A stretch of DNA of 64,000 nt, taken from assembly GCA_044224315.1 (NCBI GenBank), contig JBGAKR010000001.1, positions 1,298,733-1,362,732 on the forward strand, in the 5' to 3' direction. Positions 3,100-10,372 of this stretch are shown piece by piece. Each line of letters starts with the position of its first letter. Positions within the stretch are counted from its first letter, which is position 1. This DNA comes from Bacteroidia bacterium (GTDB taxonomy: Bacteria; Bacteroidota; Bacteroidia; NS11-12g; UBA955). Position numbers and translations under genes: made by a program. Below the pieces are notes generated by a model. That model ran no database searches and was not told the DNA's origin. It was given only the letters and a program-made list of their open reading frames with translations.

Positions 3100-5094
3100 T
3101 TATTTCTTAAAAAAGTAAGTTTCGTTCATTCGTGTGTCTTCTGCTTCAAAGGAATCAACCTTGCGGAAGTTCTCCACCTTCTCTCCGGGTAATGCCCATC
3201 TTTTCAAGGCAAAATCTATCATTTCCATTTCACGTTTGTCATTCATCCGCATGGATATTTTTCTATAATACTCATGTGTTTTATTCCTCAGCTTCCGGTC
3301 TTCATTTAAGTATTTTACCGCTTTTTTCAAATGATCTTCAAGCGCCGTTACCTGTCGCAATTTGATCAGACTAGACTGGTTATTGATCAATTCATTCACT
3401 TTTTCCTCAATCAGTCCATTCTGCAATTCTATGTTCTTTGCCAGTCCCATCAGTACAAAATTGCCCAGTCTGCGTTTTTCATGATGATTTGGCTCAAAAT
3501 ACTGCTGTAGGTTCTTTGATGCCCAAATATGTTCAAGGCTCAGCACATCATTCAGCATGGAATCTTCATCGTCTTTACGAACCAGTATTTCCTCTATATC
3601 AAACCGGGTTTTAAAAGATTCCTGCAGGTGTTCTTCGAACGATGCCAGGAAATACCGTATTCCTCTCCAACGGTAAAAATCATCCTTCTCATCTTTATCC
3701 AGTGTCAACGCCTGTACAAATTTCTTTTCAGGACAATAGTATTCAACTAAGTCTCTCAGATTTGCCTTCACCCAGTCAAGATGATTTCCATCGATAATCT
3801 TACCCGTTTTTACGGTGTGATTGTCATAATAATCTACACTTTGTGTGGTGTCCCAACCTTTATTCTTGTCCCAATATAATGAATGTGCAAACCAGAAGAG
3901 GTTACCTTGTTCAGTATCTGCCCTACCTGTAATTTTATTCAATACATATAACCTGAAATTCACCTTTTCTATCCATTCCAAAAATTCAACAACCACATCC
4001 GGGCTGTCAAGATAGGTCATCAAAGCCAGATACAGTGGCAACACTGATGCCTTGCTAGGCTGACAACGAAGTCTCTTCAGCCAATTTGAAATATCCGCTT
4101 TCCGATGACCTGCATAGTGCACATTGAAATGGTGCTGATTGAGCAGATATGCATAATGAAGGGCAGAAACTTCCAGAAATTCGACAAAGGCAGTAATCCT
4201 TTTAATGTGCCCGTCAATTTTGAGCATAACGGTTTCACCGGATGGATGCAATTCCTTGAGATTGGCATAGACATTCCAGCTCTCTGCCTTGCTCGAATCG
4301 TAAAATACAATATAGCAGTTGCGCAAGAAACGGTTTTCAGCATCGTTATTTGTCACCCCGGCTTTGCTGAGGTAAATCTGGATATTTCCCCATCTGCTGT
4401 TTATTTCCTCCCGAAGTGAATCTCTGCCATAGACGGAAGTGAGATAGATGAAGTAATTCTTTATTTTTTCCAGTTCTGATAGTTCTTTTCCCCTGTTATT
4501 GATAACCTCAAACATGATTCCGATATCTTTGGTATTATTTGGGGCATAACAGAGGAAACCGAGTTTTTTCAGAACAGTATTCAGAATTTCATCAACATCG
4601 GTTTTTTTGTCATTCAGCCATTCATTGAAGAATTTTTTGGCCCCAAAGATGCATTCATGAGATTTGATTTCAGCGGTTTTTTCCTTATTGCCGATAATGG
4701 TATCGTGAAAGAAAGATTTTGTCTCTTCATTGGTAAGTAACACCGGTCTCTCTTTTCCGATACCGCCCCTTTGTATATATTTTTCGTAAAGCGATATGTA
4801 CTTAGTGCTGTTCTTTTGATAAATGCAATTGAGTAAAATAATAATGGTGGTTATCCGCTGCTGTCCGTCTACGATTTCATAGACATTATTACCATCATTG
4901 GCAGGTGTCAAAACAATGGTACCGGTATAATGACTGTAATCCTTTTTTGCAACTTTGATAATGTCCGCCTTAAAATCTGCCAATTGAGCATCTTCCCAGG
5001 AGTATCCCCGCTGATAATCCGGGATGACGAAGAAGTTTTCGCTGATGATTTCTTCAAAAGTGAGTAGTCTGGAGATAAAGTTATTCATTTTCAA
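3100..5094 (-). CDS. DUF262 (ParB/Srx-like, DGQQR) + DUF1524 (His-Me finger) GmrSD-family nuclease-like protein, copy 2
   Basis: 664 aa. N-terminus carries FVIPDYQRGYSWE ... IVDGQQRITTI; C-terminus carries LSLEHIWASKN...GNFVLMGLAKNIELQN (HNH-like DUF1524). It overlaps the downstream nuclease ORF by 14 nt and ends 9 nt before the methyltransferase start. Confidence 0.8.
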   Translation of the reverse strand: MKMNNFISRLLTFEEIISENFFVIPDYQRGYSWEDAQLADFKADIIKVAKKDYSHYTGTIVLTPANDGNNVYEIVDGQQRITTIIILLNCIYQKNSTKYISLYEKYIQRGGIGKERPVLLTNEETKSFFHDTIIGNKEKTAEIKSHECIFGAKKFFNEWLNDKKTDVDEILNTVLKKLGFLCYAPNNTKDIGIMFEVINNRGKELSELEKIKNYFIYLTSVYGRDSLREEINSRWGNIQIYLSKAGVTNNDAENRFLRNCYIVFYDSSKAESWNVYANLKELHPSGETVMLKIDGHIKRITAFVEFLEVSALHYAYLLNQHHFNVHYAGHRKADISNWLKRLRCQPSKASVLPLYLALMTYLDSPDVVVEFLEWIEKVNFRLYVLNKITGRADTEQGNLFWFAHSLYWDKNKGWDTTQSVDYYDNHTVKTGKIIDGNHLDWVKANLRDLVEYYCPEKKFVQALTLDKDEKDDFYRWRGIRYFLASFEEHLQESFKTRFDIEEILVRKDDEDSMLNDVLSLEHIWASKNLQQYFEPNHHEKRRLGNFVLMGLAKNIELQNGLIEEKVNELINNQSSLIKLRQVTALEDHLKKAVKYLNEDRKLRNKTHEYYRKISMRMNDKREMEMIDFALKRWALPGEKVENFRKVDSFEAEDTRMNETYFFKK

Positions 5095-8575: not shown

Positions 8576-10372
8576 TTACAATCCAAAATAATATTCCCTC
8601 AATTTATCTGACATGAGTTTTCTGCGCATGGCCAGAAAATCCACATAATTGTCTTGGGTCATATTAAAGACGGATTCTGGTAAACAGTTGGCCTTCAGGT
8701 TCCCAAGCAATTGGGATTCCGTAACAATGCCTCCAAGGTCTGCATGTCCTGTTATAATTTGGTCGTGGATTCGCTTAAAATAATCAACCGGTGCTGCATT
8801 TCTCATAGAAATATTTATTTCCTGCTGGCAGAGGACAAAATTAGCCACCTGGTTGTATTCAAAGCGATTGTATCCATGCTGTTTAAGATAATCTTTTGGA
8901 AAAATATGGTGCAAATCTCCGCGATTTTCTATCAGGCTTTTTATTGTAATATCTCTGGATAAAAATCCGGGATCATTATTTTTCACCTGTGCGGCGAAAA
9001 ACACATTCAATGCAGGATTGTTTGAACTAGGGGAATCCAGATCCTGAATGAGTTGTGAACTCCAGAATGCTTCTGACAAGGAAGCAGACTCTTTCTCAAT
9101 CAGATTCTCGGCTGCACCTCGTTCGCGAATTCGGCGAATGTCCCTGTCAAAAACACTTTCCACTGAACCGCTATATCTTTTGGTCAGCAGTGAATATACG
9201 AACCAACGTCGCACTGTTTTTTCAATCTGCGCCGCATGCACATTCAGGCTGCGCAAATGAAGATATAACACATAGGCAAAATTCAGGCTGTTTTGCGAAT
9301 TGATCATACGGGGTGAGATGAAACCAGCTGATTTGATGATCATTAAAAACCTTTCAAAATTGGTTTGATTGATAAAATCTTTTACCCCTTCACCGAGCAA
9401 ATTGAAACTGCTTTCTGATATTGAATCTTCAAAGGTTTTGCTTTCGAAATTTCGTCCAGACAACAGACTGACCAGATCGCTGAGTTTACCGCGGTGGAAC
9501 TTGCTCGTAAAAGCTACTCTGAGCATATCGGTATAACTTGGGTCATACAAGTCGTCCAACTCATCCTTTAACCATGTCATTTTGCGGAAATAATCCGTTT
9601 TTGCAAATTCGGCATCATGATCGCGGATATTTTCGTAAAATTCGGGTGCAACCGCCAAATGGCAGAAGTAGTCAATTGCTTTTCTAAGATTATTTCCATC
9701 GTAAATATCGTTAGCGGCAATTTTACTCATGGCAAAATCTGCCTGAGACAATACGACGCCCTGACTGTTGATGCGGATAAATATTTCTGTGACCGTATCA
9801 ATGTCCAATTCGGGGGAAAGTTCGATATAACCTATCTGCTTCTTTAATATTGAAAATAAGCGGTCAAATGCTTCCGCAATTTTGTCACTACTCACCTCCG
9901 GATTGTCCTGAAGATACTGGCTGACAGCCTTGAACTGGTTTGTATTTCCAGACATCAGCTCTGAAATATCGGGTATCCAGGTTTTGTCTTTTAAAATCGC
10001 CGTATTCTGAACTTCAAATACTTCATCGATTGGATGGAATGCGATTTTTATCCTGATTTTTTTATACTCTTTATTTACAACGTAATCACCATTGATCGCC
10101 GCTTTGAGTGCTGTAACCCGCTGCTGCCCGTCAATTAATATTTTTTTTCCTCTTGCAATGCTTCCATCTTTGAGATTCACATTAGGGTTTTGCCAGGCAA
10201 TAAGATACCCTGTAGGGTAGCCCTGATAAAGACTGTCCATCAATTCGCGAACCCTTGAAGGTTCCCAGACAAAGGGCCTCTGAATTTCCGGTATCGCAAT
10301 TTCACCCGATCGTACCCAGGATAAAAGGTTTTCTATAAGCTGCTGATTTACAATGTATTTTTGGGTAGCCAT
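8576..10372 (-). CDS. DUF262 + DUF1524 GmrSD-family nuclease-like protein, copy 1 (first gene of the operon)
   Basis: IAIPEIQRPFVWE ... ILIDGQQRVTAL (DUF262) and C-terminal GDLHHIFPKDYL...YNQVANFVLCQQEIN (DUF1524). The ORF track start at 10423 adds an implausible hydrophobic 17-aa leader (MQIFYTICICLYFNIIIM). The ATG at 10370-10372 (MATQKY) sits about 20 nt downstream of a TAnnTTTG motif, so I call that the start. Confidence 0.8.
   Translation of the reverse strand: MATQKYIVNQQLIENLLSWVRSGEIAIPEIQRPFVWEPSRVRELMDSLYQGYPTGYLIAWQNPNVNLKDGSIARGKKILIDGQQRVTALKAAINGDYVVNKEYKKIRIKIAFHPIDEVFEVQNTAILKDKTWIPDISELMSGNTNQFKAVSQYLQDNPEVSSDKIAEAFDRLFSILKKQIGYIELSPELDIDTVTEIFIRINSQGVVLSQADFAMSKIAANDIYDGNNLRKAIDYFCHLAVAPEFYENIRDHDAEFAKTDYFRKMTWLKDELDDLYDPSYTDMLRVAFTSKFHRGKLSDLVSLLSGRNFESKTFEDSISESSFNLLGEGVKDFINQTNFERFLMIIKSAGFISPRMINSQNSLNFAYVLYLHLRSLNVHAAQIEKTVRRWFVYSLLTKRYSGSVESVFDRDIRRIRERGAAENLIEKESASLSEAFWSSQLIQDLDSPSSNNPALNVFFAAQVKNNDPGFLSRDITIKSLIENRGDLHHIFPKDYLKQHGYNRFEYNQVANFVLCQQEINISMRNAAPVDYFKRIHDQIITGHADLGGIVTESQLLGNLKANCLPESVFNMTQDNYVDFLAMRRKLMSDKLREYYFGL

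Follow-up and report, generated by a model that had tools for sequence, protein, structure and literature searches.

The window, i.e. the whole stretch of 64,000 nucleotides analysed here, carries on its minus strand an operon in which two full-length GmrSD-family genes, called A and B below, stand on either side of a UvrD-type helicase gene and a Cas4-like nuclease gene. We propose that A and B are probably two autonomous modification-dependent restriction enzymes, separately captured as cargo and layered onto a type III restriction cassette. Four genes, for a UvrD helicase, a Cas4-like nuclease and the type III proteins Mod and Res, make up the conserved cassette of the locus, and A, B and a PIF1-like helicase fill three variable slots, located upstream of the helicase, between the nuclease and Mod, and between Mod and Res, respectively. 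The original prediction had considered either a heteromer, one protein possibly acting as a sensor and the other as an effector, or two proteins of distinct specificities; the second option fits the evidence.

Gene organisation and core cassette

Gene A (8576..10372, 598 aa) comes first, and its ATG start at 10372 is supported by a 598-aa database protein with 100% identity and by homologs of equal length. It is followed, on the same minus strand, by the SF1 helicase of UvrD type (5917..8544, 875 aa; Pfam UvrD-helicase, 1.2e-54, and UvrD_C), the Cas4-like PD-(D/E)XK nuclease (5081..5917, 278 aa) and gene B (3100..5094), which measures 664 aa from the TTG at 5094 and 662 aa from the ATG at 5088 taken by the gene callers. 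The operon runs on past position 3100 with the type III DNA methyltransferase Mod (1222..3090, 622 aa; Pfam N6_N4_Mtase, 1e-30; PADLOC MTase_III, 1.2e-155), an SF1B helicase that is PIF1/RecD-like and bears a TM helix at its N-terminus (1..1219, partial in the window; 492 aa in L001) and, beyond the window, the type III Res (988 aa; PADLOC REase_III, 9e-189). The successive junctions measure 31, -1, -8, 9 and 2 nt and no terminator-like site was found at any of them, so that the earlier description of these genes as one operon is reasonable.

A TAtgTTTG box at 10391..10398 (minus strand), 26 nt upstream of the ATG of A, is a candidate promoter of the operon; we take it to be a Bacteroidota-type -7 box, presumably following the consensus of Bacteroides promoters. 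Only three motifs of this type occur on the minus strand in 11 kb. A scan for sigma-70 promoters and terminators, ill-suited to Bacteroidota promoters, gave counts no better than those of shuffled sequences.

The helicase-nuclease previously described between the two paralogs is indeed bracketed by A and B but consists of two genes, over which a single Cas4-like domain is split. The C-terminus of the helicase holds the first cysteine and motif I of this domain (PDDEXK_1 positions 9-58 at residues 823-869, by Pfam) and the 278-aa nuclease holds the remainder (PDDEXK_1 positions 92-246), with the motifs D, DxK, QxxxY and CxxCx5C conserved in 10 homologs. All helicase homologs are about 870 aa long, with C827, P828, G850 and H854 invariant, and the nuclease gene always comes after the helicase gene in related loci. 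A frameshift artefact was considered as the origin of the split and rejected, since every homolog shows the same division.

The cassette belongs with the type III restriction-modification (RM) systems containing UvrD-Cas4, in which Mod and a Res made up of a ResIII helicase and RE_endonuc lie next to UvrD and a pfam12705 nuclease, and is conserved in at least 10 loci and on a Bacillus cereus plasmid. Hma, which consists of a helicase, an m5C methyltransferase and an ATPase (PMC8565338), was also considered as the host system. It was rejected because the Hma methylase is an m5C enzyme and the one found here is an N6_N4 type III Mod; no Hma model appears among the PADLOC matches listed (for the helicase, the best 25 of 44 families).

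Domain architecture and affinities of A and B

Both proteins possess the N-terminal DUF262 domain with the DGQQR motif expected of the GmrSD family (Machnicka 2015), and the Pfam domain GmrSD_N/DUF262 (PF03235) is significant in A (2.7e-32) as in B (4.2e-33). A further mark of the family is cleavage that NTP stimulates and that is confined to modified DNA, for example with glucosyl-hmC. In translation, DGQQR lies at aa 81-85 of A (10118..10132) and at aa 76-80 of B (4855..4869). The His-Me finger of A (8813..8911) comprises H488-H489-I-F-P (HHIFP at 8897-8911), N507, N511 and N520, and that of B (3433..3534) comprises E521-H522-I-W (EHIW at 3523-3534), N545 and N554, all on the minus strand. 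These motifs are present where the original prediction had placed them, and the residues D81-R85, H488, H489, N507, N511 and N520 of A (41 sequences) and D76-R80, E521, H522, N545 and N554 of B (48 sequences) are invariant.

The further claim that A and B are full-length DUF262/DUF1524 paralogs holds for the intact reading frames and for DUF262, with the caveat that DUF1524 falls below the Pfam threshold in both. GmrSD_C (DUF1524, PF07510) reaches 4e-4 in B, just under the cutoff (20.7 bits vs 23), and is present in some B homologs; the C-terminal fragment of A gives only HNH_4 (E 0.004) and GmrSD_C (E 0.1). Motifs, profiles and structural model together indicate that B carries a C-terminal DUF1524 His-Me finger nuclease. 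Neither the C-terminal fragments of the two proteins against PADLOC nor the C-terminal profile of A against PDB sequences gave a meaningful match, and A, B and the nuclease all went without a match in NCBIfam.

The strong divergence of the two proteins noticed earlier is borne out: BLASTP aligns only 82 residues (23% identity, E 0.001), within DUF262, and in a profile-profile comparison the DUF262 domains alone align (96% probability). At the level of sequence, their relatedness is evident only through this N-terminal domain, and homology of the C-terminal parts is not demonstrated. A and B come from different, anciently separated GmrSD subfamilies, and a recent tandem duplication was considered and rejected.

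By its sequence, A is BrxU-like and not an orthologue of BrxU: its PADLOC HEC-05 match (1.7e-31) is broken into four stretches, and sequence similarity to BrxU (PDB) does not extend beyond the N-terminal ~220 residues. The structure model of A is poor in its N-terminal part. B belongs with the HEC-06 subfamily and is HEC-06/DndI-like, HEC-06 being its best PADLOC family (profiles at 1.4e-41, 1.2e-34 and 8.7e-33, the best match spanning residues 7-390 only). The AF2 model of B (pLDDT 89) gives, with Foldseek, a full-length match to DndI (9JFL, E 4e-14), the closest solved structure; DndI recognises a modification of the host and directs restriction at DNA without it. A scan of viral contigs with the B alignment yielded no relatives.

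Experiments have shown both the BrxU/HEC-05-like and the HEC-06-like subfamilies to work without a partner. By analogy with BrxU and HEC-06, each GmrSD protein of the operon most likely acts alone, as a homo-oligomer, in which the DGQQR NTPase domain would sense DNA and nucleotide and gate the His-Me finger nuclease at the C-terminus. Unlike the type III/UvrD-Cas4 core, which would attack DNA that lacks the host methylation, A and B, each captured separately as embedded cargo of this core, would attack phage DNA whose hypermodified bases would otherwise let it escape. The two enzymes probably differ in their modification range, and their co-transcription would provide co-regulation and not a complex.

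Variable slots in related loci and competing interpretations

About 13 distinct loci, a small sample, were compared for the context of the cassette. A metagenome scan with the nuclease gave four loci only, and a scan of a genome collection with the helicase alignment was discarded, as it was keyed on generic UvrD motifs and its 80 loci contained unrelated UvrD helicases (~30% identity).

Among the loci compared, the helicase-nuclease cassette is most often bare: no DUF262 gene accompanies it in L099, L102 (Croceibacter), L104 (Lacibacter) and L113 (the B. cereus plasmid), so that this form is seen in Bacteroidota as well as on this plasmid. The slots of the relatives are either empty or filled with other cargo, namely ORF6N (L082 group), GIY-YIG (L096), two ORFs of unknown kind (L095) or, in L092, a third GmrSD lineage that occupies the position of A upstream of the helicase, with no B and with a PIF1-like helicase (58% identity). 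L091, which at 80% nucleotide identity is the operon's closest relative, has B without A and without PIF1; its homology begins exactly at the helicase ATG, and the two missing genes are absent as clean gene-sized indels. A and B were found together around the cassette at the present locus only, among the related loci examined. Members of the A family stand by themselves or within type I RM systems at five unrelated loci from four phyla, with neither the helicase-nuclease nor B, and the B family occurs without the helicase-nuclease and without an A-family paralog in L108 and L107.

The alternative that survives best, although we judge it rather unlikely, is that B, in contrast to A, serves the UvrD-Cas4-Mod-Res cassette as a functional accessory, either as a DndI/SspE-like nuclease that senses modification and is kept from self DNA by Mod methylation or as an additional effector that the core recruits. 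B occupies the identical slot, directly upstream of Mod, in three cassettes (the window, L091 and L105; 50-100% identity). According to a crude contig-overlap test, at least seven more B homologs lie on the same contig as a homolog of the helicase, and no A homolog, those of the same phylum included, shares a contig with the helicase or B among the top-120 homolog lists, apart from that of the window itself. A specific link between B and the cassette is thus a minor possibility, and the resemblance to DndI, a reader of host modification, is in keeping with it. However, most cassettes lack B, the B-family proteins of L108 and L107 stand alone, more distant relatives lie in BREX loci of Acinetobacter plasmids and a lone HEC-06 gene suffices to protect E. 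coli. The dS between B and its L091 copy (0.74) is below that of the flanking core genes (1.35, 1.76, saturated), which suggests that the movement of B postdates the divergence of the core and points to lateral transfer and not to co-inheritance. Moreover, no dnd/ssp-type family was detected by Pfam in 10 further, non-giant ORFs of the window, five of which matched no family.

In a more specific form, for which the chances appear slightly lower again, the B-type GmrSD would be a recurrent accessory of the UvrD-split-Cas4-type III cassette that reads Mod methylation as DndI and SspE read phosphorothioate; if this were true, a GmrSD-family enzyme would be a methylation-gated effector against unmodified DNA. 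As a weaker variant, BrxU-like and HEC-06-like pairs, present here and in Marinoscillum, could be selected as a cooperating duo.

Three observations count against a pure cargo model: B is not randomly placed, given its recurrence in the nuclease|Mod slot; the genes here probably share a transcript, their junctions being tight or overlapping; and GmrSD-like systems of two proteins exist, as TgvAB shows.

The heteromer or sensor-effector pair initially suggested, possibly including the helicase-nuclease that separates the two proteins, is in our opinion very improbable. A and B do lie on one probable transcript, one island of Marinoscillum (L107) likewise carries a BrxU-like gene together with a B-family gene, and in TgvAB two DUF262 proteins depend on each other (PMC11411939). 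Yet the pair was seen around the cassette at this locus only; A is missing from the nearest relative, and in L092 a different GmrSD lineage stands at the place of A and B is absent. Each family also occurs alone in several phyla, the cassette is most often bare, and A and B are not adjacent, unlike tgvAB. In addition, neither protein looks like a dedicated sensor, because both keep the full sets of NTPase and nuclease motifs.

Finally, that one of the two genes is a decaying remnant carried in the operon is hardly credible, since, in spite of the subthreshold DUF1524, neither copy is degenerate: both are intact with all catalytic residues invariant, B is under purifying selection (dN/dS 0.067 against the L091 copy), the A family shows a mean column identity of 86% (41 sequences) and an identity of 52-60% to plasmid-borne homologs in other phyla, and the structural models match BrxU, DndI and SspE.

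Comparison with known systems

The preferred reading, of two separately captured enzymes, can be set against several described systems. TgvAB, a two-protein GmrSD-like system located in a type I RM system of Vibrio cholerae VPI-2, likewise places two DUF262-containing genes within one restriction operon; however, its genes are adjacent, TgvA has no DUF1524 and the pair is conserved (1,341 hits) (PMC11411939), whereas A and B are both complete, are separated by a 3.4-kb helicase-nuclease and occur as a pair in none of the related loci examined. BrxU/HEC-05, a GmrSD-family type IV restriction enzyme (PDB 7P9K) embedded in BREX and Hma loci, has the nuclease motif DHIYP where A has HHIFP, and its nucleotide-binding RLFDS motif corresponds to RELMDS in A; moreover, the host of BrxU is BREX and that of A a type III RM system with UvrD-Cas4.

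HEC-06 is a single-gene GmrSD-like defence that protects E. coli, and its mutants indicate that residues matching Q79/R80 of B and the E-H pair of the nuclease motif are needed for defence (Payne et al. bioRxiv 2024, 10.1101/2024.01.29.577857). The EHICP motif of HEC-06 (E471/H472) corresponds to E521-H522-I-W of B, although the HEC-06 models are ~100 aa shorter. The hosts of HEC-06 and DndI are Hma or a dnd cluster, whereas B lies within a type III/UvrD-Cas4 cassette, and the linkage to dndBCDE or sspABCD that characterises the DndI/SspE type is replaced here by UvrD, the Cas4-like nuclease, Mod, PIF1 and Res.

The core itself has the gene content (UvrD, Cas4-like pfam12705 nuclease, Mod and Res) of a system predicted in silico, in which type III Mod and Res are the commonest neighbours of UvrD-Cas4 proteins (Hudaiberdiev et al. 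2017, PMC5704561). In that paper UvrD-Cas4 is a fusion protein, whereas the Cas4-like Fe-S nuclease domain is consistently split across two polypeptides in all the relatives seen here; a role of the cassette as a host for embedded cargo does not appear to be described there. This cassette, predicted in 2017, would behave as a hub with three cargo slots, one of them preferred by the B subfamily. The slots repeatedly capture different GmrSD lineages, which fits the idea of modification-dependent enzymes complementing a restriction blocked by modification.

A further parallel is the "guilt by embedding" of Payne et al. (2024), in which same-strand genes are likewise nested in a multi-gene restriction system and GmrSD-like genes are typical cargo; the hosts given there are Hma, BREX, DISARM and type I RM, and a type III cassette with UvrD-Cas4 is not among them. 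The arrangement of A and B as swappable passenger genes is known and fairly ordinary and leaves the current understanding of GmrSD enzymes unchanged, and the apparent two-paralog system is a clear example of defence-gene embedding, an already described principle.

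Layout of the operon and its surroundings

A tight array of minus-strand genes spans window positions 1-10423. It contains A, a GmrSD-family gene resembling BrxU/HEC-05 (8576-10372, 598 aa), a UvrD-type helicase (5917-8544, 875 aa), a PD-(D/E)XK nuclease (5081-5917, 278 aa), B, a HEC-06/DndI-like member of the GmrSD family (3100-5094 from TTG, 664 aa, or 3100-5088 from ATG, 662 aa), a type III Mod methyltransferase (1222-3090, 622 aa) and a partial PIF1/RecD-like helicase (1-1219) that starts at 1219 and extends past the window edge. The rest is seen on an identical 16-kb contig of a different data set (L001), where the PIF1-like gene is 492 aa long (L001 9298-10776) and precedes a 988-aa type III Res with ResIII and RE_endonuc domains (PADLOC REase_III 9e-189). 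Since the genes are closely spaced (31, -1, -8, 9 and 2 nt), a junction scan found no terminator-like hairpin at any operon junction and a TAnnTTTG sequence, a Bacteroidota-style box, lies 26 nt upstream of the ATG of A (one of only three on the same strand in 11 kb), it is reasonable to consider the array as one operon of seven genes, extending past the 3100-10372 segment originally proposed.

Directly upstream of the operon (10495-15644, minus strand) lie a 1553-aa RHS/YD-repeat-like protein, recognised by eye from its translation, and a 163-aa ORF. A probable toxin-antitoxin pair is found about 6 kb away from the operon (16337-17717, minus strand), where a 338-aa protein containing a SocA/Panacea antitoxin domain (1.8e-20) overlaps a 126-aa ORF downstream on the same strand. 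Large proteins are encoded on the minus strand across much of the remaining window (20935-63938), including three giant ORFs of 1518, 2141 and 2338 aa (38750-56898, minus strand); some scanned ORFs have PKD/CBM domains or C-terminal sorting domains of type IX secretion (Por_Secre_tail, CHU_C), a sign of a Bacteroidota host.

A conserved cassette with three variable positions

Loci with relatives of the helicase, the nuclease, A and B were gathered and compared by tblastn and profile searches. The conserved unit is composed of helicase (~870 aa), nuclease (~278 aa), Mod and Res, which are collinear in every locus of sufficient length and whose identity to the window copies drops in parallel, locus by locus. 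It occurs without any DUF262 gene in L099, in Croceibacter (L102), in Lacibacter sediminis (L104) and on a Bacillus cereus megaplasmid (L113), where it adjoins Lamassu and the nuclease is 45% identical. Identification of this cassette as Hma was rejected because Hma has an m5C methylase (PMC8565338) instead of the type III Mod found here. Hudaiberdiev et al. 2017 (PMC5704561) described how UvrD-Cas4-like fusion proteins associate with type III Mod/Res; here, by contrast, the Cas4-like PD-(D/E)XK/Fe-S nuclease domain is divided over two polypeptides, the helicase C-terminus (5917-6070) and the 278-aa protein (5081-5917). The helicase end carries the first Cys and motif I (C827-PRKY ... GSLVHQ), the next gene carries the D, DxK, QxxxY and CxxCx5C motifs, and the helicase stop overlaps the nuclease start codon. 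All ~870-aa helicase homologs show this split, as do 10 nuclease homologs ranging from Bacteroidota to the B. cereus plasmid, and such conservation implies a putative shared iron-sulfur cluster or obligate heterodimer. In a widespread variant of the cassette (22 contigs; L082-L090), the nuclease is annotated as a 167-aa ORF overlapping a second one of 120 or 132 aa (e.g. L082 12625-13465) and may be frameshifted or decaying.

Three positions of the cassette are variable. Upstream of the helicase, the window has A, L092 has a different full-length GmrSD and other loci have unrelated genes. The L092 protein (1358-3217, 619 aa; GmrSD_N 2.5e-23 and GmrSD_C 1.5e-10, both above the Pfam threshold) represents a third lineage, distantly HEC-06-like, and occupies the position of A, 1 nt upstream of the helicase, in a cassette 71% identical to that of the window. 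Between nuclease and Mod are found B (window), B relatives 91% (L091) or 50% (L105/L106) identical, an ORF6N protein (L082-L090), two unknown ORFs (L095) or, in other loci, nothing. The Mod-Res position contains the PIF1-like helicase in the window, a 58% identical one in L092 and a GIY-YIG protein in L096, and is otherwise empty; the window protein, of the SF1B type, has a predicted N-terminal transmembrane helix, and its best PADLOC matches are PDC-S68 and RecD-like models.

Comparison with L091, the closest relative of the operon (80% nucleotide identity), is decisive for A: nucleotide homology runs from the exact helicase start codon through B, Mod and Res, and both A and the PIF1-like gene are absent from L091 as clean gene-sized indels. 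As dS between the two loci is lower for B (0.74) than for nuclease (1.35), Mod (1.76) and helicase (saturated), there is a hint, subject to possible effects of codon usage, that transfer of B between cassettes may postdate their divergence. Within Mod, a stretch at ~1540-1925 (L001 8592-8975) has zero nucleotide homology to L091, and Mod protein identity is just 70% versus 86-94% for its neighbours; this stretch resembles a swapped target-recognition domain and, if it is one, would confer a different methylation specificity.

A and B as members of distinct GmrSD subfamilies

The original prediction of two full-length, strongly diverged DUF262 paralogs was borne out by Pfam, motifs, BLASTP and hhalign. 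GmrSD_N/DUF262 is strong in both (A 2.7e-32, B 4.2e-33) and the predicted DGQQR and His-Me finger motifs lie at the expected sites: D81-G-Q-Q-R85, H488-H489, N507, N511 and N520 are invariant among 41 aligned A-family sequences, and D76-G-Q-Q-R80, E521-H522, N545 and N554 among 48 of the B family. DUF1524 is under the Pfam threshold in both (B, 20.7 bits for a cutoff of 23; the C-terminal fragment of A gives HNH_4 at E 0.004, GmrSD_C at E 0.1 and nothing else), a gap that structure prediction mostly fills. The B model is confident (pLDDT 89, pTM 0.85) and matches DndI (9JFL), the solved structure nearest to B (PMC11662687), along its entire length (Foldseek E 4e-14), with SspE next. BLASTP aligns A and B at 23% identity over 82 residues surrounding DGQQR (E 0.001), hhalign aligns only the DUF262 domains of the two families (96% probability), and PADLOC assigns A to HEC-05 (= BrxU; 1.7e-31) and B to HEC-06 (1.4e-41) and to "Orf5" models. 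B carries exactly the residues mutated in HEC-06 (Payne et al., bioRxiv 10.1101/2024.01.29.577857) and, compared with its 91%-identical L091 counterpart, is under strong purifying selection (dN/dS 0.067).

The A family, large and highly conserved, has thousands of matches about 65% identical to A, and plasmid genes of Pseudomonas, Meiothermus and Mesobacillus are 52-60% identical. None of five independent A-family loci contains the helicase-nuclease or a B-family gene: the A-family gene adjoins an integrase and a type ISP-like enzyme (L109), lies within an Algoriphagus type I RM with a TIR gene (L112) or between hsdM and hsdS in Meiothermus (L115), or stands alone, on pKF715A (L114) or adjoining an RT/SLATT pair (L116). 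In a crude co-location check, matching the lengths of the longest contigs across the top-120 homolog lists of A, B and the helicase, the window's own contig was the sole overlap of the A list with either other list, and the B and helicase lists had seven further contigs in common.

Proposed embedding of autonomous enzymes in a restriction operon

Payne et al. (bioRxiv 10.1101/2024.01.29.577857) named "embedding" the nesting of same-strand defence genes inside multi-gene restriction systems, with GmrSD-like genes as frequent cargo. Judged from its sequence, the window operon is of this pattern, which makes two autonomous GmrSD-type enzymes, each captured separately, the best explanation for A and B. 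They would act in parallel with the type III/UvrD-Cas4 system, the latter directed against unmodified DNA and A and B probably covering different modified phage DNAs.

A functional tie between B and the cassette would fit the recurrence of B in a single slot, between nuclease and Mod, and its closest structural relative, DndI, which senses host modification and restricts unmodified DNA (PMC11662687), but we consider it unlikely, as B-family proteins occur without the cassette in Pedobacter (L108), close to a type II RM, and in Marinoscillum (L107), just upstream of a type I RM. Remoter B relatives adjoin pglX in Acinetobacter BREX loci.

Two interpretations had been offered for the pair, and our results favour distinct, independent enzymes over a heteromer. 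The heteromer or sensor-effector interpretation is unsupported because the pair is not conserved, the genes are non-adjacent, A and B are each catalytically complete, and members of either family work or occur by themselves. In TgvAB, the one known two-protein relative (PMC11411939), the genes are adjacent, TgvA is devoid of DUF1524 and the pair is conserved, whereas A and B are contrary on all three points. In Marinoscillum pacificum (JAMZMJ010000004.1; L107 8001-14903), the B-family protein (46% identical) accompanies a type I RM in which a BrxU/HEC-05-like DUF262 protein (PADLOC HEC-05 6.7e-41) is nested between hsdR and hsdM. This second island with both subfamilies, from which the helicase-nuclease is absent, suggests that stacking of BrxU-like and B-family proteins may be favoured, as distinct specificities would predict. 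Finally, the invariant motifs and the dN/dS of B rule out a degenerate remnant for either copy, and the low identity and different PADLOC subfamilies rule out a recent duplication.

The operon is thus a new instance, of modest interest, of an already known arrangement. With autonomous enzymes captured separately, the proposed complementarity between a restriction system and a GmrSD-type enzyme resembles that of BREX and BrxU (Picton et al., as cited in PMC11411939).
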